A stretch of DNA of 64,000 nucleotides from Parcubacteria bacterium RAAC4_OD1_1 (GTDB lineage Bacteria > Patescibacteriota > Minisyncoccia > Phycocordibacterales > UBA9973). The stretch covers positions 487,772 to 551,771 of the forward strand of contig AWSN01000001.1 in assembly GCA_000505065.1 (NCBI GenBank), written 5' to 3'. A program made the position numbers and the translations under genes. Below the pieces are notes generated by a model. That model did no database searches. It had not been told where the DNA came from and saw only the letters and a program-made list of their open reading frames with translations. Positions 1 through 41,681 of the stretch are shown piece by piece; the first letter of the stretch is position 1; every line of letters starts with the position of its first letter.

Positions 1-360
1 AGCTGCGTCTTGATCTGGATTTTGGACTTCTATTATATCAAATTTTAAATCTTCAGGAATAGCAATATTCTTTTTCTTCATTTCTTTTATCAAATCATTC
101 TTTAACTTAATTGCTCCTTCTCCTGAACGACCAATAATCATACCTGGTCTACCTGTATGGATCATCACCCTTGTTTGTTTTGCATTTCTTTCAATTTCTA
201 CACGAGAAACATAAAAACCCCTTAATTTTTTTTCTAAAAACTCACGAACTATGATATCACTACCAAGAAAATCTTTGTATTTTTTATCACCAAACCAGCG
301 TGATTTCCAATCACGTAGTGTAACTAATCTATGAGCATACGGATGAACTACTTTTGACAT
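1..360 (-). CDS. rpsC: 30S ribosomal protein S3 (N-terminal part; gene runs off the window edge)
   Basis: The minus-strand ORF starting at 360 translates MSKVVHPYAHRLVTLRDWKSRWF..., an S3 KH-domain N-terminus. Its position after rplV matches the S10 operon order. Confidence 0.8.
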   Translation of the reverse strand, partial: MSKVVHPYAHRLVTLRDWKSRWFGDKKYKDFLGSDIIVREFLEKKLRGFYVSRVEIERNAKQTRVMIHTGRPGMIIGRSGEGAIKLKNDLIKEMKKKNIAIPEDLKFDIIEVQNPDQDAA

Positions 361-23237: not shown

Positions 23238-23310
23238 TGTCGGGGTGCCGGGAATCGAACCCGGCTCTCGTGTTCCCAAAACACGGATACTACCGATATA
23301 CTACACCCCG
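23238..23310 (-). tRNA. tRNA-Pro (anticodon TGG); CCA not encoded
   Basis: The cloverleaf was folded by eye: acceptor CGGGGTG/CACCCCG, anticodon loop TTTGGGA, T-loop TTCGATT. Confidence 0.8.
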
Positions 23311-23351
23311 AAACTAAACATACAAACAAAATAAAATCAGTAAACCTGATT

Positions 23352-23424
23352 TGTGCGGGATAAGGGAGTCGAACCCTTCACCACAGTTTGGAAAACTGTT
23401 ATTTTACCGATAAACTAATCCCGC
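23352..23424 (-). tRNA. tRNA-Trp (anticodon CCA); CCA end not encoded
   Basis: Acceptor GCGGGAT/ATCCCGC, anticodon loop TTCCAAA, T-arm GGGTTCGACTCCC. Confidence 0.8.
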
Positions 23425-23466
23425 AATCATCATACCAATATAACAAATTTTTACCTTTTTATCAAA

Positions 23467-23883
23467 TCACAATATTATATTTTCTACTACTTTTACTCTA
23501 CCTAGTTTTTTATGTATATCAATATAAACAACCAAAAGGTCAAATTGCCATTCCCTATTCCCTACTCTATTACTTATGAGATAAGTTTCTACTATTCTTC
23601 GAAGTCTTTGCATTTTCCAAATATGCATATTTTCTTCTGGTCTACCTGTTTCAAACCCCCACTGTCCAGGCCTTGCCTGGACAGTGGGGGTAAATGAGAA
23701 TTGTTTTGATTTTACTTCAACAAAATATATCTTATTATCTTTTATTGCAATTATATCTATTTCTCCCCACTTTCTAGTGTAATTTCTTTCTAAAACAAAA
23801 AATCCGTGTTTCATAAGAAACCTACAGGCTAAATCTTCCCCAATTTTACCTATTTTTTGTGAATTTGAAGTAAAACTTTTCAT
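23467..23883 (-). CDS. yraN: YraN (UPF0102) family endonuclease carrying an in-frame P2 palindrome insertion
   Basis: GEIDIIA and VEVKSK motifs; the peptide PTVQARPGQWG is encoded by the 35-nt palindrome at 23656-23690. Confidence 0.7.
   Translation of the reverse strand: MKSFTSNSQKIGKIGEDLACRFLMKHGFFVLERNYTRKWGEIDIIAIKDNKIYFVEVKSKQFSFTPTVQARPGQWGFETGRPEENMHIWKMQRLRRIVETYLISNRVGNREWQFDLLVVYIDIHKKLGRVKVVENIIL
23656..23690. repeat. P2 palindrome copy (cccccactgtccaggccttgcctggacagtggggg), inside yraN
   Basis: A perfect 16-bp stem with a 3-nt loop. It is GC-rich within AT-rich DNA and open in all six frames. Confidence 0.9.
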
Positions 23884-24120
23884 AGTGTTTCACGTGAAAC
23901 ATTTTTAGGTGTTAATAACGGACAAATTCACCTAAAAATTGTACTTTACTAATAAAACCTTATTTATCAAGCTTTTTTATATTTTAGATATAAATATTTG
24001 AATTACAAAGTTTGTCTTTTATAAACAATACACACATACTTATCCACATAATCTATATTTTTAAAGGGTTTTTGGTGTGTATAAAAGACTAATAAAAGTC
24101 ATAATCTATAGTAGTAATTT

Positions 24121-24194
24121 TGTGCACCTGGAGGGATTCGAACCCCCAACGACGGTTCCGAAGACCGGTATGATATCCATTTCACTACAGGTGC
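24121..24194 (-). tRNA. tRNA-Arg (anticodon TCG); CCA not encoded
   Basis: Acceptor GCACCTG/CAGGTGC, anticodon loop CTTCGGA, T-arm GGGGGTTCGAATCCC. Confidence 0.75.
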
Positions 24195-24290
24195 ATATTT
24201 TATATTATACAATAAAATAATAATTTAACAAAACAAATTGCTTTTTGATTTAAAAAATATTATAATAAAAAAGTTATAAAAAATAATTTA

Positions 24291-24363
24291 GCGGTGTTGG
24301 TTTAGTGGTAGAACACGTCCTTGCCAAGGATGAGACAGGAGTTCGATTCTCCTACGCCGCACA
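24291..24363 (+). tRNA. tRNA-Gly (anticodon GCC); CCA not encoded
   Basis: Acceptor GCGGTGT/ACGCCGC, anticodon loop TTGCCAA, T-arm GGAGTTCGATTCTCC. Confidence 0.8.
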
Positions 24364-34443: not shown

Positions 34444-36009
34444 ATGTCATTTGGAAAAGTATATGGTGCTCAAACGCACTTACTAAAAGGGAAAATAGTG
34501 ACAATTGAAGTTGATATCACAAAAGGTACACTTCATGCCTTTACTCTTGTGGGTCTTCCTGATAAAGCTGTCGATGAGTCTAAAGATAGAATGAGCTCAG
34601 CTCTCAAGAACTCTGGATATAATTCTCCTAAAAACCAAAACCAGAAAATAGTTATATCACTTTCACCAGCCGATCTTAAAAAAGAAGGACCGTATTTTGA
34701 TCTTCCTATTGCTTTAGCATATTTACTTTCGGCAGAAGAAATAAATTTTGACCCTGAGGGTAAGATATTTCTAGGTGAGCTTTCTTTGAATGGAGAACTG
34801 AAGCCCATAAAAGGATCTCTTCCTTTAGTCCAAGAAGCAAAGAAAATGGGTTTTAAAGAAATATTTCTACCTAAAGATAATGAAAAAGAAGCAGCCCTTG
34901 TAGATGGAGTAGATATATATGGTGCAAAAAATTTAAAAGAAGTAATAGATCATATTAATACACCTAAAATTAAAAAAGGTGAAAAAGAAAATAATCTAAA
35001 AAATAAAATACAAAAAGCAAATAAAACAGAAATTATCAAAAAGAAAAAAGAAGGTGGAATAGATTTCTCTGACATCAAAGGCCAAGAGGGTGCCAAGCGT
35101 GGGCTTATGATCGCAGCTTCTGGTGGGCACAATATCGCTATGTATGGGCCCCCAGGGACTGGGAAGACAATGCTCGCTAGAGTATTTTCAAATATCTTAC
35201 CAGACTTAGATTTGGATGATTGCCTTGAGATAACAGGAATACATTCTATATCTGGAATATTAGAAGATGAAATAATTACCGAGCCACCATTCCGCTCGCC
35301 ACATCACACTGCAAGCTATGTATCACTCATCGGTGGAGGAGCAAATATAAAACCAGGAGAAGTTACTCTTGCTCATAAAGGAGTACTCTTCTTAGATGAA
35401 TTCCCTGAGTTTGAAAAAAGAGTTTTAGAGTCACTTCGTCAACCACTTGAAGACAATATAGTTTCTATCTCTCGTGCTAAAGGCTCAGCAACATTTCCAT
35501 CAAATTTTATTTTAATTGCCGCGATGAATCCTTGCCCGTGTGGCAACAAAGGAAGTAAGCAAAAGCAATGCATCTGCAAACCAAGTGACCTAGATAGATA
35601 CAAAAGGAAATTATCAGGCCCTATAATGGACCGCATAGATATATGGGTCAATGTATCTAATGTTGATTATGATAAATTGGCAGATGATAATGGTGAAGGA
35701 GAGAAGACAGAAATGATAAAACAAAAAGTTTTAAAAGCGAGAGAAATACAGAATAAAAGATTTAGTGGTACCCAAAGAAAAATAAAAACAAACAGTGATA
35801 TAAATGTAAAAGAATTAAATATTTATGCTCCCCTTGATGAAGAAACAAGAAAAATTTTAAATCAAAGTGCCGAGAGATTACAACTTTCTGCTCGTGCATA
35901 CCACAGGACGATAAAGCTCGCCCGAACCATAGCAGATTTAGAGGGAGAGGATAACATAAAAGCATCACATATACTAGAAGCTTTGCAATACAGACCAAGA
36001 GAAATATAA
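34444..36009 (+). CDS. YifB/ComM family Mg-chelatase-like AAA+ ATPase
   Basis: A ChlI-like N-terminal domain is followed by Walker A (GPPGTGKT) and a C-terminal Mg-chelatase helical domain. Confidence 0.75.
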   Translation: MSFGKVYGAQTHLLKGKIVTIEVDITKGTLHAFTLVGLPDKAVDESKDRMSSALKNSGYNSPKNQNQKIVISLSPADLKKEGPYFDLPIALAYLLSAEEINFDPEGKIFLGELSLNGELKPIKGSLPLVQEAKKMGFKEIFLPKDNEKEAALVDGVDIYGAKNLKEVIDHINTPKIKKGEKENNLKNKIQKANKTEIIKKKKEGGIDFSDIKGQEGAKRGLMIAASGGHNIAMYGPPGTGKTMLARVFSNILPDLDLDDCLEITGIHSISGILEDEIITEPPFRSPHHTASYVSLIGGGANIKPGEVTLAHKGVLFLDEFPEFEKRVLESLRQPLEDNIVSISRAKGSATFPSNFILIAAMNPCPCGNKGSKQKQCICKPSDLDRYKRKLSGPIMDRIDIWVNVSNVDYDKLADDNGEGEKTEMIKQKVLKAREIQNKRFSGTQRKIKTNSDINVKELNIYAPLDEETRKILNQSAERLQLSARAYHRTIKLARTIADLEGEDNIKASHILEALQYRPREI

Positions 36010-36032
36010 AAATACCTAATATAAAATGATAA

Positions 36033-36077
36033 GAGCCGGAAAGTTCTGTTAAGAACTTTCCGGCTCGGTTTCTTTTT
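36033..36077 (+). terminator. Terminator after yifB/comM
   Basis: The sequence is gagccggaaagttctgttaagaactttccggctcggtttcttttt. Confidence 0.7.
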
Positions 36078-36259
36078 CTTTGCTTTCTTCTTCGATTAAT
36101 TCCATACATCTTGGACTTCGCACAGTATTCATTGATATTTTAGGAAACATCAACGGATATCCCCCAATAAAAAACACAAAGGTTTTAAACAGATTTTTCA
36201 TACGATACTTGTTTTAAAGTTTCCCTGATTTTACTTATTTCCCCAATAAAGTCAAATGA

Positions 36260-36292
36260 TAAAGCCCCGCTCGTACTCGAGCGGGGCTTTTA
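36260..36292 (-). terminator. Terminator after LysM/M23 peptidase gene
   Basis: The sequence is aaagccccgctcgtactcgagcggggcttttag. Confidence 0.7.
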
Positions 36293-36309
36293 GTTTATTT
36301 AAATATTTT

Positions 36310-37479
36310 TTAATAAACCGGTGGCTTCATCGTAGAACCATTACTCTTTATTACCTCAAAGTGTAAGTGTGGACCAGTTGATCTTCCTGTGTTGCCTATT
36401 GTTCCAATCTTTTCTCCTTGGGAAACAGTTGCCCCGAGAGAGACACTGACACTCTGCAAGTGAGCATACTTTGTCTTCATTCCATTTGGATGATCTATCA
36501 CAATATAATTTCCATATCTTCCTCCACAAGAAGAAGCACCTTCTTTACAATAATTTACAACCTTAGTGACCACTCCTGAGGCAGAAGCGACGATTGGAGT
36601 ACCTCTTTTATTACCAATATCAACTCCATAATGGAATGAACCCCATCTTGATCCATAAGGAGAAGTGATAGGCCCTGTTGCTGGACGGATAAAGTATCCA
36701 GAAGGAGCAGAACTTGAAGATGAAGAAGATGAGCTACTAAATGATGGCTTTGTAGATGATGAAGAAACGGCTGAAGGTTTCGTTCCGTTTGGAACATATA
36801 TTATATCTCCTACAGCAAGAGCAGAATCCTTAGAAAGCCCATTATAAACGAGCATATCTTCTAAATCTGCATCGTAAATACTGGCTATCTTTCCTAAACT
36901 ATCACCTTTCTTTACAGTATGTCTAACTCCAGTCACTGGCAAAATATTCAATTTCTGACCGACTTTTATGGTACTTCCTGATAAATTGTTCTCCCATCTA
37001 ATCGTATTTTGAGAAACATCGAAATCTTCAGCTATTTGAGAGAGAGTATCACCTTCTTTTACTATATATTCTGTCATTTGACCATTAGAAACACTCTCTA
37101 TACCACTGCCAAAAAGTGCTCCATTTGAAGAAAGTGCTTCACCTTCAATGATAGACATTTGTGAGCCATCATTAGCATTCTTCATATCTGGGACAGTGGA
37201 TTCAAGTAGGGGCATATTTTGAGTATTGGAAATAAAAAAATCAGTTCCGTATTCATCATTCTCAGCTGCTTGAGTACTTTTACCTATAATTCCTGTCATC
37301 ATATCAGATAAAAAGCTGGCATTTGCCTCAAATGGTATTCCAGCTATCATAGAAAATACAAACAAAGAATAAACAACCTTTCCAAGAAAAGGCTTATAAA
37401 TTAAAGATATTTTCATCTTTTGGTTATCTGTAGAAACAGATTGGCCTAAAGAATCTTCATTGGTTTGTTCTAATTGCAT
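36310..37479 (-). CDS. LysM-domain M23 family metallopeptidase (cell-wall hydrolase)
   Basis: Two LysM modules, a Ser-rich linker, and the M23 motifs HYGVDIG and HLHFEV. Confidence 0.85.
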   Translation of the reverse strand: MQLEQTNEDSLGQSVSTDNQKMKISLIYKPFLGKVVYSLFVFSMIAGIPFEANASFLSDMMTGIIGKSTQAAENDEYGTDFFISNTQNMPLLESTVPDMKNANDGSQMSIIEGEALSSNGALFGSGIESVSNGQMTEYIVKEGDTLSQIAEDFDVSQNTIRWENNLSGSTIKVGQKLNILPVTGVRHTVKKGDSLGKIASIYDADLEDMLVYNGLSKDSALAVGDIIYVPNGTKPSAVSSSSTKPSFSSSSSSSSSSAPSGYFIRPATGPITSPYGSRWGSFHYGVDIGNKRGTPIVASASGVVTKVVNYCKEGASSCGGRYGNYIVIDHPNGMKTKYAHLQSVSVSLGATVSQGEKIGTIGNTGRSTGPHLHFEVIKSNGSTMKPPVY

Positions 37480-37622
37480 AAATAAGTTGGCATCTCTGTA
37501 AAGCTTCTCATAAAAGCTAAGCTTCCTTTCAGGAACTGTGGGATAAAACCGAAACGAACCCCACTACCTATAAGGGTACCCCATCTGGGGGAGCCAGTCA
37601 ACAGAGTTATACACAGGGCAAA

Positions 37623-37651
37623 ACTATACATCACTCCACCATATTTGACAA
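37623..37651 (-). promoter_or_regulatory. Divergent promoter TTGTCA-17-TATAGT for LysM/M23 peptidase with ~150-nt GC-rich structured leader (37480-37620)
   Basis: Back-to-back with the plus-strand promoter; the -35 boxes overlap. Confidence 0.5.
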
Positions 37652-37660
37652 GATTAGGTA

Positions 37661-37690
37661 TTGACAAAATGCCATAAAATATGCTATAAT
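37661..37690 (+). promoter_or_regulatory. Consensus sigma70 promoter TTGACA-18-TATAAT driving ~110-nt structured leader of lipoprotein gene 37800
   Basis: The sequence is ttgacaaaatgccataaaatatgctataat. Confidence 0.6.
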
Positions 37691-37799
37691 ATAATTAGAG
37701 GTGAAATAAGCAAGCTAGTATCTAGGAATTGGTCCTACGGGAGCCAATCGGATGACTAGCCCTTGATTTCGCTCAATGTACTTTTAAATTCATATAAAC

Positions 37800-38504
37800 A
37801 TGAAAAAGTTATTTTTTTCTTTTTTAGGTGTTTTAATCGTGGTAATTCTTACCACCAGTTGTAACCAGAAAAGTCACCGCCTGCAGCCGGACATAAAAAT
37901 TTCACTGAAGGCTGATACGTTGATTTACCAAAAGATTCCAGTAACTGCCCCGCGCTATTCCTGCGAAACAGGAGATAGGTTGTCTCAGGACAAACTTGTA
38001 GCCATAGATAGTGTTCCAGTGATAATATCACTGAGTAAGGACACTGTAATTTCAGGGAAAAATTTGCCGGCGGTAGTTCCACCGGTAAAACCTGTTAAAA
38101 CAAAAAAATCAGGTGCTGGGTTTAATTTTGATTGGTTTTGGCCAATTATTAATTCTATTTTAGCTGCACTTCTGATTCTTCTGGCTTTAGGTTTGCTTGC
38201 TTATTTAGTTTTATGGTTACTGAAACAACTCAGAAACCAAACTGAGGACAATAATCCCAATGGGAGAGCTGGACACGCAACACAAGTTATCCCAGTAGTT
38301 CCTGTTACTCCCGGTGGTGGACAAAATCAACAACAAGTTGCTCAACCAAACCAAACTAATGTTTTTAATCATCAGATTTCAATGGCTGAAGGATTGATTG
38401 GAAATCAAAAAATCCACCGTATCATTCAAAAGTCAGAAGGTAGTGCTGATGGTAGCTGGAGATCTGAGATTACGATTGAAACAAAAAATGAACAGGAAAA
38501 ATAA
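37800..38504 (+). CDS. Hypothetical lipoprotein / membrane protein
   Basis: An LTTSC lipobox, a TM helix, and a Q/N-rich C-terminus. Confidence 0.45.
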   Translation: MKKLFFSFLGVLIVVILTTSCNQKSHRLQPDIKISLKADTLIYQKIPVTAPRYSCETGDRLSQDKLVAIDSVPVIISLSKDTVISGKNLPAVVPPVKPVKTKKSGAGFNFDWFWPIINSILAALLILLALGLLAYLVLWLLKQLRNQTEDNNPNGRAGHATQVIPVVPVTPGGGQNQQQVAQPNQTNVFNHQISMAEGLIGNQKIHRIIQKSEGSADGSWRSEITIETKNEQEK

Positions 38505-38627
38505 ACCTGTATGAGCCGTTGCGACGAAAGTTGCACGGCTCTTTCTTTTTATTCCTTTATTATTAGAGTTGTGCTAATATTTACATATAAAGTTTCTAAT
38601 TAATAACTATCTAAAAACACAAAAGAT

Positions 38628-41600
38628 ATGGAAAAAATAAATGAACCAAAATCAGCTAAACTAGAAACAGAAGATAAAGATTTAAAAAGATTTAAAGAAA
38701 AATTGTCTAAAATTCGCATAGATGAATCTTTTATTAAAGAAAGAAAAAGCCAATTGCTCACAAAAGGATACGGTGATGAAGAATCAAGAATTATATCTTC
38801 CAAAGAAGCTATGATTAAAGCAGATAACGATAGGATTGAATTATTAAAAGAATATCCTGATTTTAAAGATGGAGAAAAAAGAATAAATGAAATTTTAATA
38901 AAAAGAGACACAAACCAAAAAGAAATAAATGAGCTTTTAAAAAAAGATAAGAAAGAGGAAGAAGAAAACAAAAACATAAAATCAAACAGGCAACTACTTA
39001 GAGAGGCAGAAGATAAATTAAGAAATATGTCTGTTGATATGGGTATTATCAAAAAAGAGAAATCCGATCTTTTGGGAGAGGGGTATCCTTTTGAATTTTC
39101 TGAAAAGCTTTCTAGTCTAAATGGAGAAATAAGACTTCTTCAAAATAAAATTCAAATACTAATAGAAAATCCAAAAATAGAAAATGGAATAAAACTTAGA
39201 AAAAATCTTGAAGAAAAATTAAGTAAACTTGAAAAGGAAAGAAATATTTTATTGACTTCAAAACCAGAACCAATAAAAAACGAAACTACAAAAAATGAAG
39301 TTGTTGAAAAAAATGAGAAACCGGTAGTAGATGAATATGATGAAGCAGAAATAGATAAAGAAATAAAAAACTTTGTTCCAAAAAAAGAAGAACAAACTTC
39401 CAAGAAAATAAATTGGGGTAAACTTAATCCTTTTTCTTGGTTTAAGAAAGATAAAAAAGAAAATGATAATTCTTCGACAGAGGGGGAATTGTTGGATAAA
39501 AAGAGAATGATTTTAAGTCACACAGGGGCGGCTCCAGCTTCTTATGAGGATAAAATTGAGAATGAGGAAAAAAAAGAAGAAAACATAAATGAAATTTTAG
39601 ATAAAAAAATAAATGCGGAAAAAAATAAAGTACTTCTGAGTCACACTGGAGCTGCTCCTGCTTTTTATGAGGATAAAATTGAAGTAGGAGAAAAAAAGGA
39701 AGTTAAAAATGAAAAAAAGAAAACTTTATATACAAAAGAACAGCAAAAAGAATTTTTTGATGGTCTTAAAGAAAAATTAAAAAATGGGGAAATAAGTGAA
39801 ATAGATTTTAAAGATGCAATTTTAAAAAGAACTGAGGAAATCCATAATTTTGAAAAAGGATCTGTCTATAAAGCGATGGACAAGTGGGACAACTGGGGGA
39901 AGAATGGCGGTGTAGGTAAATATGCCAAAATGGCAATAAACATTGCTATGATTGCTGGAGTATCATCTCTTACAGTAAATGGAATGGCTGGATTAACAGA
40001 AAGAGTTGTAAGTAGAACCCTCATAGGAACGGCAGCAGGAACTGGATTAGGTGGCCTTATGACTTGGCTTGATAAATTACCCCCAGAGAAAAAATCCAAA
40101 GTTCAAAAAATTATAAAAGGTATTCTTATAGGAGGATCCGCTATCTTCACAATTGGAACAGGTGGAATAGTACCGGGATTAGCCATAGGAGCATCTACGG
40201 CTTTTGGATATGGAATATCTAGATATTATAAAAATTGGAACGAAAGAGCAATGCGTTCAGAAAATATTGAAAATTTAAAAGAAATACCTATTGATCTAGA
40301 AAATCTAGATAAAAATACTACCTTAATGGAGTTTAAAATGAAAAAAATGTTAAAGTCAGCCGATAGGACAAAAGTACTAGCAAAAATAGCTAGTGCGGGT
40401 ATGGCTATGGCTTTAAGTATTGGTACACTAGAAGTTTCTGGATTAGTTCATGATCATTTAAATGATACATCAAGTACAGAAAATGTTGATGACAATACGA
40501 ACAAAGAAAAGATTGAGGATAGTAAAAATAATGAAGTAGCCCAAGAAGCTGAAGATGAAAAAACTAATGGAGCAGAGAAAAATGATGATACTAAAGTAAA
40601 CAACGAAAAAGAAAATAATAATACCCAAACAGAAGATAATAAAAAAATAGAAGATAATAAAAAATCTTATGTGGGGGAAAAAGAAATTGGAGCTGTCGCA
40701 AATAAAGGTCAAGGTGCTATATCTACAATAAAAGAACTTAAAGAAAGTTTAGAAAAAACTTACGAAAATGTTCCAGAAAAAGATATTCCAGAAAATGTAA
40801 AACATATAATAGACACAGATGCACATGACTTAGCAAAAGAGTACGGTATGTATCGCCCAGGGGAAGAAGCAGAAAGTGCAAAAGTATTTTCTGGTGACAA
40901 AATAATTTTCGATCAAGAAACAGGTGAAGTAAAATTCCATCAAGAAAAAACCGGCGAAGATGTTGTTCTTGAAAAAGGAAAAGAGTTCGGTGGAGACATG
41001 TTTGATTCTGGGAAATTTAAGGCACCAGTGGAAAATTTAGAAACTGAAATAAAAGGAGATGAAACTTCTCAATTTGAAAAAGATTACCCACAAACATCAC
41101 CAGAAAATGAAGAATTTGAAATGGGTACAAAAACTGAAAATTCAAATATTATTATAGATGGAGAAGAGATAAAAGCTCCAGAAATTTCTGAAAAAGAATT
41201 ATTAGAAAATAAAAAGTTGGCGGAATCATACGGAGTAGATTCTGAAAGATACAGAGGTGAAACAGATAGTGAATACTTAAATAGAATGAAAGAAGAAATA
41301 GCTGAAGAAAAAGAATCTCTGAAGCAAGAACTAGCCTCAAGTGAAAAAATGAGTTTAGATAAAACTCTCAAGATGGTCCATGGAGAAAAATTAGAAATAG
41401 AAAAATTAAAAGACTTAAAAGAAATAACGAGAGGTTATGAAGGTGCAACAAATCAGTCATCACTCAAAGACATAATGGAAAAAATTAAAGAGCAAGGACT
41501 TAAAGCAATCATAACCAAAGACATAGGTGAAAATCCGACAGATGCTCAAGTCTCTATAAATGAAAAAATGCGTTTGGTTGAGAAATCACTAAGTGGACAA

Positions 41601-41681
41601 AAAGGATATAATTATGAATTTGCACAGAAGCTACCAGATGGTAATGTAAAAATATTACATATTAAATTATTTAAAGAATAA
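38628..41681 (+). CDS. Giant hypothetical protein: K/E-rich coiled coils flanking a glycine-rich multi-TM core
   Basis: 1017 aa. A duplicated peptide LSHTGAAPA(S/F)YEDKIE is followed by TM helices between about residues 430 and 600. Confidence 0.5.
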   Translation: MEKINEPKSAKLETEDKDLKRFKEKLSKIRIDESFIKERKSQLLTKGYGDEESRIISSKEAMIKADNDRIELLKEYPDFKDGEKRINEILIKRDTNQKEINELLKKDKKEEEENKNIKSNRQLLREAEDKLRNMSVDMGIIKKEKSDLLGEGYPFEFSEKLSSLNGEIRLLQNKIQILIENPKIENGIKLRKNLEEKLSKLEKERNILLTSKPEPIKNETTKNEVVEKNEKPVVDEYDEAEIDKEIKNFVPKKEEQTSKKINWGKLNPFSWFKKDKKENDNSSTEGELLDKKRMILSHTGAAPASYEDKIENEEKKEENINEILDKKINAEKNKVLLSHTGAAPAFYEDKIEVGEKKEVKNEKKKTLYTKEQQKEFFDGLKEKLKNGEISEIDFKDAILKRTEEIHNFEKGSVYKAMDKWDNWGKNGGVGKYAKMAINIAMIAGVSSLTVNGMAGLTERVVSRTLIGTAAGTGLGGLMTWLDKLPPEKKSKVQKIIKGILIGGSAIFTIGTGGIVPGLAIGASTAFGYGISRYYKNWNERAMRSENIENLKEIPIDLENLDKNTTLMEFKMKKMLKSADRTKVLAKIASAGMAMALSIGTLEVSGLVHDHLNDTSSTENVDDNTNKEKIEDSKNNEVAQEAEDEKTNGAEKNDDTKVNNEKENNNTQTEDNKKIEDNKKSYVGEKEIGAVANKGQGAISTIKELKESLEKTYENVPEKDIPENVKHIIDTDAHDLAKEYGMYRPGEEAESAKVFSGDKIIFDQETGEVKFHQEKTGEDVVLEKGKEFGGDMFDSGKFKAPVENLETEIKGDETSQFEKDYPQTSPENEEFEMGTKTENSNIIIDGEEIKAPEISEKELLENKKLAESYGVDSERYRGETDSEYLNRMKEEIAEEKESLKQELASSEKMSLDKTLKMVHGEKLEIEKLKDLKEITRGYEGATNQSSLKDIMEKIKEQGLKAIITKDIGENPTDAQVSINEKMRLVEKSLSGQKGYNYEFAQKLPDGNVKILHIKLFKE

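Follow-up and report, generated by a model that had tools for sequence, protein, structure and literature searches.

Genes for cell-wall hydrolases are classic targets of the c-di-AMP riboswitch ydaO-yuaA (RF00379), and stem-loops at the very 5′ end of the leader stabilize the Escherichia coli ompA and the Bacillus subtilis aprE and ermC transcripts. The lysM-TM7, lysM-Actino, lysM-Prevotella, and M23 motifs have been described as orphan candidate cis-regulatory elements with unknown ligands (Weinberg et al., 2017, PMC5737381). At the DNA level, a DnaA box is located between the promoters dnaAp1 and dnaAp2, and DnaA also controls division genes (PMC8203912). Here, we describe a control region in a 64-kb stretch of the genome of Parcubacteria bacterium RAAC4_OD1_1 (64,000 nucleotides, hereafter the window, to which all coordinates refer). 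It occupies the 320-nt gap between two divergent genes, and its minus-strand half precedes a gene for a secreted LysM/M23 peptidase. The minus half is probably a conserved two-level control region of this Paceibacteria M23/LysM gene, composed of promoter/operator DNA and a leader RNA. The novelty is a deeply conserved promoter/operator module joined to a clade-specific structured 5′ untranslated region (UTR) that is absent from Rfam; the kinds of element themselves are known. The features of the minus half are as follows.

36310..37479, minus strand, M23/LysM peptidase gene: 389 aa, secreted, two LysM domains and one Peptidase_M23 domain (Pfam)
37607..37615, plus strand, DnaA-box-like 9-mer, candidate operator: TTATACACA (TGTGTATAA on the gene strand), an exact match to TTATNCACA
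37573..37601, minus strand, P_down, the putative conserved promoter: -35 TTGACT (37601-37596), 17-nt spacer, -10 TACCCT (37578-37573), predicted transcription start site (TSS) near 37565
37623..37651, minus strand, P_up, a candidate sigma70-type promoter: TTGTCA (37651-37646), 17-nt spacer, TATAGT (37628-37623), 10/12 consensus positions, predicted TSS near 37616
37538..37564, minus strand, hairpin P3: GUGGGGU-13 nt-AUCCCAC (37564-37558 paired with 37544-37538)
37500..37525, minus strand, hairpin P4: GAAGCUU-12 nt-AAGCUUU (37525-37519 paired with 37506-37500), present in the minimum free energy (MFE) structure of the window leader
37492..37619, minus strand, match of covariance model R1: 51.2 bits, E-value 4.4e-9, the sole match in the 64-kb window

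The locus resembles each of the described systems in part. P3 (37564) starts within 1–3 nt of the predicted 5′ end (~37565), as stabilizer stem-loops do, although its role is drawn from this position relative to a predicted TSS. With ydaO-yuaA, the region shares the location upstream of a cell-wall hydrolase gene and a leader that is GC-richer than the AT-rich genome; however, it has no match to the riboswitch model and consists of two simple hairpins without an expression platform. The motifs of Weinberg et al. are likewise conserved elements in LysM/M23 5′ UTRs, and lysM-TM7 also comes from a phylum of the Candidate Phyla Radiation (CPR) (PMC5737381), whereas the window element is confined to Paceibacteria orthologues, has much of its conservation in promoter/operator DNA, and matches none of their models. 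As in the E. coli dnaAp1-box-dnaAp2 arrangement, a TTATNCACA-type 9-mer lies between two tandem sigma70-type promoters, just 5′ of the downstream -35, and the target would be tied to the cell cycle or division, as at other DnaA-regulated promoters (nrdAB; Caulobacter ftsZ, gcrA, and podJ; B. subtilis ftsL) (PMC8203912). Unlike those promoters, it belongs to CPR/Paceibacteria, serves an M23/LysM target, and has a single box with a fixed distance to the -35 in two large clades; nearly every clade-1 box is one mismatch off the consensus, and DnaA binding here is a prediction from sequence.

Orthologues of the peptidase number in the hundreds, at 50–85% identity. BLASTN and nhmmer searches with the intergenic region of the window matched the same place upstream of the gene, on the gene strand, in most of the 41 genome loci collected, 34 of which contain a full-length orthologue. 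The core CTGTG-K-AT-W-AC-N4-TTGAC-N18-TACCCT was present in 32 of these 34 loci; in the window, it occurs once, as a 44-nt stretch at 37616-37573 (minus). A pattern scan of metagenomes revealed 58 loci, about 51 of them with an M23/LysM orthologue downstream, the other seven being chance matches in unrelated, mostly GC-rich contexts. Throughout the 32 genome and ~51 metagenome loci, the core was always on the gene strand and in one copy per locus. The region upstream of the orthologue recurs in ~80 Paceibacteria loci, and the module was absent from the distant M23 paralogues (L036-L042). Removal of duplicates left ~70 distinct leaders; most of the counts below refer to 68 distinct leaders of clade 1. 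In all 68, the spacer from TTGACN to TANCCT is exactly 17 nt, with a 5′ half that varies in sequence. No helix with solid covariation was detected inside the 44-nt core by mutual information with average product correction (MI-APC) or by RNAalifold. The core is therefore best read as DNA, namely an operator with -35 and -10 elements, given the fixed 17-nt spacer, the sigma70 geometry, the lack of a covarying helix, and the survival of the module without the leader in a second clade.

This second large clade (clade 2), which includes Staskawiczbacteria, is defined by the protein of locus L076, a distant M23/LysM gene (33% identity) that matches the DNA pattern but has neither P3 nor P4. The sample of clade 2 comprised L076 and nine further loci. 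They are syntenic with the window, with ComM/Mg-chelatase and DksA/TraR zinc-finger neighbors common to both, and the peptidase gene is usually divergent from a ksgA-like methyltransferase gene ~90–210 nt away. The module was found in nine of the ten loci (L076, L104-L111), always in the order box, 4 nt (15 in L109), TTGAC(A/T/C), exactly 17 nt, and hexamer. On the gene strand, the box reads TGTGGATAA in six loci, TGGGGATAA in two, and TGTGTATAA in one. The spacer ends in TGn in 8/9 (TAG in L076), which gives an extended -10, and the hexamers are TAAATT (twice), TACATT, TAAACT, TAGATT, TAATTT, TAACCT, TAGAAT, and TACCCT. With these variants, the last hexamer behaves as a -10, with T, A, and the final T fixed and the interior free. 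Thus, all 68 clade-1 and all nine clade-2 promoters combine a TTGAC-like -35, a TAnnnT -10, and a 17-nt spacer. The annotated gene start of clade 2 lies 10–52 nt past the -10 (the call in L111 falls inside it), and the clade has no structured leader and no P3 or P4. This homology identifies TTGACT-17-TACCCT at 37601-37573 as the conserved promoter of the window peptidase gene.

Several additional features of the clade-2 loci were observed. In several loci (L104-L106, L110), a TTG within the conserved TTGTTTACATTTTTT, ~13 nt past the -10 hexamer, is annotated as the start; with starts 10–19 nt after the -10 (L104-L110), the mRNA would have almost no leader and be translated from UUG, provided that the gene does not in fact start further downstream. 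AT-rich palindromes lie just upstream of the box (L104:600-645, L106:600-640, L107:580-610), that of L104, for example, being CTGTGATTATATCACAG, which is similar to TGTGA-N6-TCACA. These palindromes may represent an additional operator or belong to the promoter of the divergent ksgA-like gene. An RNase Y gene adjoins the peptidase gene in some loci (L106:2022-2627, L107:1820-2459), its possible relevance to leader processing being based on proximity only.

The candidate operator lies 5 bp upstream of the -35 of P_down, at about -49..-41 of P_down and +2..+10 of P_up. TGTG-K-AT-W-A of the core is the reverse complement of a DnaA box, for which the pattern TTATNCACA and the consensus TTATCCACA were taken from PMC8203912. 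The 9-mer fits the pattern in 39 of the 68 clade-1 leaders and differs from the consensus by exactly one mismatch in 61, which accounts for the correlation of K with W in the mutual information. A perfect TTATCCACA was found in six of the ten clade-2 loci (nine with the module). The distance from box to -35 is fixed in 64/68 clade-1 leaders and 8/9 clade-2 loci. Closely spaced box pairs or clusters, which are common but not obligatory, were found neither in the window nor in most relatives; a tandem box TGTGGATTAC-C-TGTGGATTAC with an 11-bp period occurs only in the clade of L010, L020, L066, and L090 (L010:2245-2275). In these four loci, the upstream -10 is 22–31 nt from CTGTG instead of 4–7 nt and precedes the extra box copy.

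P_up sits 50 bp upstream of P_down. A scan of 36000-39000 with a threshold of at least 4/6 matches per hexamer revealed 13 promoter-like sites against 10.0 ± 3.7 expected, so that their total is not above chance; P_up and the plus-strand promoter described below were the two best. TACCCT matches the consensus at 3/6 positions, which places P_down below the cut-off of the scan. Among 67 distinct relatives, 12 have a well-placed P_up-like site, defined as a sigma70 site with a TTG-containing -35 and a proper -10 that ends 3–9 nt before CTGTG (shuffles: mean 1.9, at most 6). P_up is plausible but, in contrast to P_down, appears to be lineage-variable.

The second level of the region is the leader RNA. 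A raw MAFFT alignment of 31 leaders gave no RNAalifold pairs because the variable stems were poorly aligned; a covariance model, R1, was then used, with 20 length-matched leaders and two hand-identified hairpins, P3 and P4, as the seed. Over 648 kb of related loci, R1 had at most one match per locus. In an all-against-all MI-APC analysis of the family alignment, the top four column pairs fell in P3, and a P4 pair came next. P3 is paired in 92% of cells, and all five core pairs change on both sides; thus, GUGGGGU/AUCCCAC of the window corresponds to GUAGGGU/AUCCUAC in the closest relative, L002. P4 is paired in 85.3% of cells, and four of its six pairs change on both sides, e.g., from U:A to C:G in ten sequences. 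The joint covariation score of the two hairpins was 0.413, compared with 0.215 after shuffling (0/500) and at most 0.152 with the partners slid. RNAalifold on the model alignment lengthens P3 to nine pairs (AUAGG.../...CUUAU), the extension being 80% paired with modest covariation. The 5′ UTR of P_down would comprise 87 nt: P3, P4, and then ~20 unpaired nt before the AUG. The leader, put at about 150 nt by the sequence-only reading, measures ~137 nt from P_up and ~87 nt from the conserved P_down. Its description of the leader as GC-rich was accurate, with 48% GC at 37500-37650 and ~30% in the flanks.

Covariation analysis in relatives, which the sequence-only reading had proposed, supported P3 and P4. 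All three of its stems are present in the sequence, but only GUGGG...CCCAC, which is P3, is supported by comparison. In CUGUG...CACAG, the 5′ side is invariant and the partner reads ACUG, GCUG, CCUG, etc. in most relatives, so the stem is not conserved. CCCCA-GA-UGGGG lies inside the spacer of P_down, where the 3-bp stem P2 is paired in 79.0% of cells vs. 75.3% in shuffles. Further pairings were considered by eye and by mutual information and rejected. Long-range pairings of the 5′ block (CUGUG with CACAG/UACAG, KAUAA with UUAUM after P3, GGAUU with AAUCC, CCUGU with AUAGG) have partners that are not conserved or are shifted in register, and none is among the top mutual-information pairs. A hairpin within the 18-nt spacer stretch gave no consistent fold, and between the spacer and the P3 loop (AUACC/UAUCA with UGGUA), even the best column pair was only 50% Watson-Crick. 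One more small hairpin was seen in the window sequence:

37523..37535, minus strand, hairpin UUCCU-GAA-AGGAA, with two bases in common with P4

It stands where relatives have an A-rich linker, the MFE structure pairs part of it otherwise, and the helix is not conserved.

The leader also overlaps two open reading frames (ORFs). A 65-aa ORF at 37470-37667 (minus) was rejected as a gene: it has no Pfam match, and the length variation among relatives and the compensatory changes in the stems argue against coding. A 13-codon upstream ORF (uORF), MRSFTEMPTYLCN, at 37470-37511 (minus), has its AUG within the P4 loop and AGGA 12 nt 5′ of this AUG, and its UAG stop overlaps the main ORF immediately past the start codon of the latter. 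It is kept in L002 (MKSFPETPTYLCN) and not in more distant short-type leaders.

Most clade-1 loci differ from the window in the length of the leader: the gene starts 230–290 nt from CTGTG, compared with 136–163 nt in the window type, because these loci have, between P4 and the gene, an additional conserved module that is missing from the window. The center of this module, ~165–230 nt after CTGTG, is a 12-bp hairpin, AAUUACAG...CUGURRUU, around a UCGC-loop-GCGG with a UCGUA bulge. It is paired in 92.9% of cells vs. at most 50% when slid, with U:A/U:G alternation and few compensatory changes (L004-L100). Long-type leaders also contain the near-invariant stretch GCGGUCGUAC, and no Rfam family matches the module, including group I/II intron, ribozyme, 6S, and SRP models, so that these readings were dismissed. 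A helix of GAUUGUAAC with UUACAAU was rejected by eye; U often changes to C in it, and only L008 and L011 show a compensating change. Ahead of the signal peptide (MKISLF...), the reading frame remains open over 63–93 nt in most long-type loci and up to 228 nt in a few (e.g., L010:2264-2570, L008:2244-2510, L019:275-570), as far as a stop that directly precedes a conserved x-R-L-I-Q/K-...-D-S. In 11 distinct long-type leaders, the open frame has no ATG, GTG, or TTG, and all of them keep ATT/ATA at the conserved “I”; in the window type, an ATG precedes this position by two codons. This suggests a non-canonical AUU/AUA start codon in the long type, co-occurring with the extra module.

The two levels could act as follows. 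DnaA, or another factor reading the 9-mer, would set transcription from P_down, the GC-rich -10 of which probably makes the promoter dependent on such a factor. Since the box covers the first transcribed positions of P_up, a factor bound there could block P_up while acting on P_down. The P_down transcript would begin directly with P3, followed by P4 and the AUG; as a 5′-terminal stem-loop, P3 may protect the mRNA against 5′-end-dependent decay, and the leader would tune stability or translation rather than sense a ligand.

A number of observations weigh against this interpretation. As to P_down, TACCCT agrees with the -10 consensus solely at T-12, A-11, and T-7, and the invariance of CCC in clade 1 may reflect a second constraint, e.g., RNA of P_up transcripts or a factor over the -10. 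The TSSs of P_up and P_down are both predictions. AT-rich conserved blocks in the long leaders mimic promoters (TTGTAA-17..20-TAYAAT), with varying spacing, so promoter likeness can come about by chance. As to the operator, 28 of the 68 leaders have TAATNCACA, outside the strict TTATNCACA pattern; the box stands alone, without enrichment of DnaA boxes in the window (six vs. 3.7 expected). No dnaA gene was found in the window or the loci, and the box was scored against the consensus of PMC8203912, not that of the lineage itself. As to the RNA, folding of the minus leader is not exceptional relative to shuffles (z -1.37 from P_up, z -0.59 from P_down), and the stabilizer role of P3 would follow from its position. 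Of the structured leader that had been claimed ahead of the LysM/M23 gene, the covarying P3 and P4 thus stand, whereas its overall fold is no better than that of shuffled sequences.

Riboswitch explanations were assessed with Rfam. At gathering scores, the whole window yielded four tRNAs only; scans with all 4227 families gave only noise and no ydaO in 37380-37900 (521 nt, E ≤ 10) and nothing in the leaders of ten orthologous loci (E ≤ 1). The lysM-TM7, M23, lysM-Actino, and lysM-Prevotella motifs were among the models without leader matches in the window region and the ten loci. The first guess of the sequence-only reading had been a ydaO-type c-di-AMP riboswitch, and the Rfam check that it suggested returned neither RF00379 nor any other family for this region in the window or the ten loci. 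The association with a cell-wall hydrolase gene, echoed in PMC5737381, is what speaks for ydaO-yuaA; in view of these scans and of a supported fold of two separate hairpins without a long-range helix, as against the pseudo-two-fold, two-junction ydaO fold, we rejected it and assign it practically no probability. A new riboswitch class, in which 37619-37480 would be a single leader RNA transcribed from P_up and sensing a small molecule, is very doubtful. It would use the invariant CUGUG.AU.AC, UUGAC, and UACCCU as a binding core and P3/P4 as peripheral helices, and it would explain why conservation is so deep, exceeding that of the stems, among orthologues with only 50–60% protein identity. LysM/M23 hydrolase genes are often riboswitch-controlled, with orphan lysM and M23 motifs known (PMC5737381), the TSS of P_up falls at CUGUG in the window and some relatives, and the Y-rich/G-rich mini-hairpin P2 is paired slightly above shuffles. 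Yet the 5′ 44 nt contain no solidly covarying helix, and a stretch that stays at 17 nt while its 5′ half varies is the hallmark of a promoter. Clade 2 retains the module without the hairpins, with UACCCU drifting to TAnnnT and the gene starting a few nt later, and P_up is well placed in so few relatives. While P3 and P4 covary as expected of an aptamer, the invariant nucleotides sit in the 44-nt stretch without a supported helix. No Rfam family matches, no terminator-like site was found at 37480-37620 (minus) in the promoter/terminator scan of the window, and the AUG with the preceding 20 nt is unpaired in both the MFE and the centroid structure, so the start codon is not sequestered in the window leader.

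The remaining alternatives keep the conserved promoter and change one of the two levels. A rather unlikely one accepts P_down as the promoter and assigns the 9-mer to a factor other than DnaA, such as an OmpR/WalR-type response regulator or the α-subunit of RNA polymerase, its DnaA-box likeness being coincidental. The single, unclustered, and unenriched box would agree with this, as would the invariant flanks outside the DnaA consensus (C before TGTG, C after the 9-mer), the 11-bp tandem copy of one clade, which is also typical of response-regulator sites, and a response-regulator gene next to the peptidase gene in the clade-2 locus L111. However, the variable position of the 9-mer is the N of TTATNCACA, and clade 2 mostly has a perfect TTATCCACA; to our knowledge, DnaA is universal and CPR genomes carry few other regulators. 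On the RNA side, the leader hairpins could bind a protein or control translation initiation (autoregulation, an RNase site, or a translation-control element), so that the RNA layer would be the main regulator and not a passive stabilizer. This, too, is rather unlikely. In its favor, most relatives have the extra module with its highly paired 12-bp hairpin and near-invariant GCGGUCGUAC, the module co-occurs with the loss of a canonical start and with the conserved AUU/AUA, and the P3 loop (YUGGUAU) and the P4 loop are conserved in many lineages. Against it, the window has no such module, its start is an ordinary AUG in unpaired surroundings, the P3 loop is not shared by all lineages, and the sequence names no partner protein or mechanism. 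We consider it unlikely that the clade-1 5′ UTR (P3, P4, and mostly the extra module ending at AUU/AUA) is a new regulatory-RNA class for a CPR cell-wall hydrolase, and equally so that such an RNA might license the non-canonical start or sense a ligand or protein, atop a DnaA-box promoter coupling the hydrolase to replication.

The control region proposed here shares its intergenic gap with the upstream region of the divergent gene, which has the following features.

37661..37690, plus strand, candidate sigma70-type promoter for the 234-aa gene: TTGACA (37661-37666), 18-nt spacer, TGcTATAAT (-10 at 37685-37690), 12/12 consensus positions
37714..37760, plus strand, leader hairpin: GCUAGU..UUGGUCC-UACG-GGAGCCAA..ACUAGC
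37800..38504, plus strand, divergent gene for a 234-aa lipoprotein-like hypothetical protein

The divergent back-to-back promoters of the sequence-only reading were found as described (12/12 and 10/12). Their -35 boxes do not overlap as it had stated; the two hexamers stand 9 bp apart, and the sole minus-strand -35 overlapping that of the plus strand belongs to a second, weaker site (TTGTCA at 37667-37662, with TATGGT). The GCUAGU...ACUAGC stem that it had noted in the plus-strand leader is borne out by an MFE z-score of -2.73 (2/200 shuffles as good) and by its retention in L101, the only homologous locus known, which also keeps the divergent arrangement and a promoter TTGACT-17-TGcTATAAT. 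There, the hairpin has the same 19 apical nt (UUGGUCCUACGGGAGCCAA), and a flanking A:U pair is replaced by G:C; with two sequences only, covariation of this hairpin cannot be established. It had no Rfam match at E ≤ 10 in 37380-37900. Judged from this comparison, the plus half combines a strong promoter of the ordinary kind with a leader hairpin specific to the lineage, and the hairpin is real. The 234-aa protein has no Pfam match and one homologue family only. The window peptidase is 100% identical to an M23 family peptidase of Candidatus Nomurabacteria. Between its gene and the convergent ComM/Mg-chelatase gene, there are two strong terminator-like hairpins (36033-36066 and 36261-36290), one of which is bidirectional and perfectly paired over 15 bp. 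The 234-aa gene is followed downstream by a 1017-aa ORF (38628-41681) that encodes a Lys/Glu-rich, low-complexity protein with central hydrophobic segments and no Pfam match.

An origin of replication at the element was considered and rejected: the local skew minimum near 37.6 kb stems from the divergent gene pair, that of the window as a whole is broad and lies at ~27–29 kb, DnaA boxes are not enriched, and no dnaA gene is present. Elsewhere in the window, a cluster of four tRNA genes (23240-24361) has two DnaA-box matches between them (24040-24084), TTATCCACA (plus) and TTATACACA (minus), 36 bp apart. The window-wide GC skew changes sign somewhere at ~12–30 kb, and these boxes might be near the replication origin.

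In conclusion, CPR/Patescibacteria have tiny genomes, few recognizable regulators, and hardly any characterized gene control. The element described here is a control element conserved over two large Paceibacteria clades and serves a secreted peptidoglycan endopeptidase of the LysM/M23 type that probably acts in division or in interaction with a host. It is also a cautionary case, as a GC-rich “structured” core resembling an aptamer is largely promoter/operator DNA. The leader hairpins, together with the long variant and its apparent AUU/AUA start, constitute a conserved RNA element that has no counterpart in Rfam. Should the 9-mer function as a DnaA box, replication status would be tied directly to cell-wall cleavage in organisms without most of the known cell-cycle regulators.

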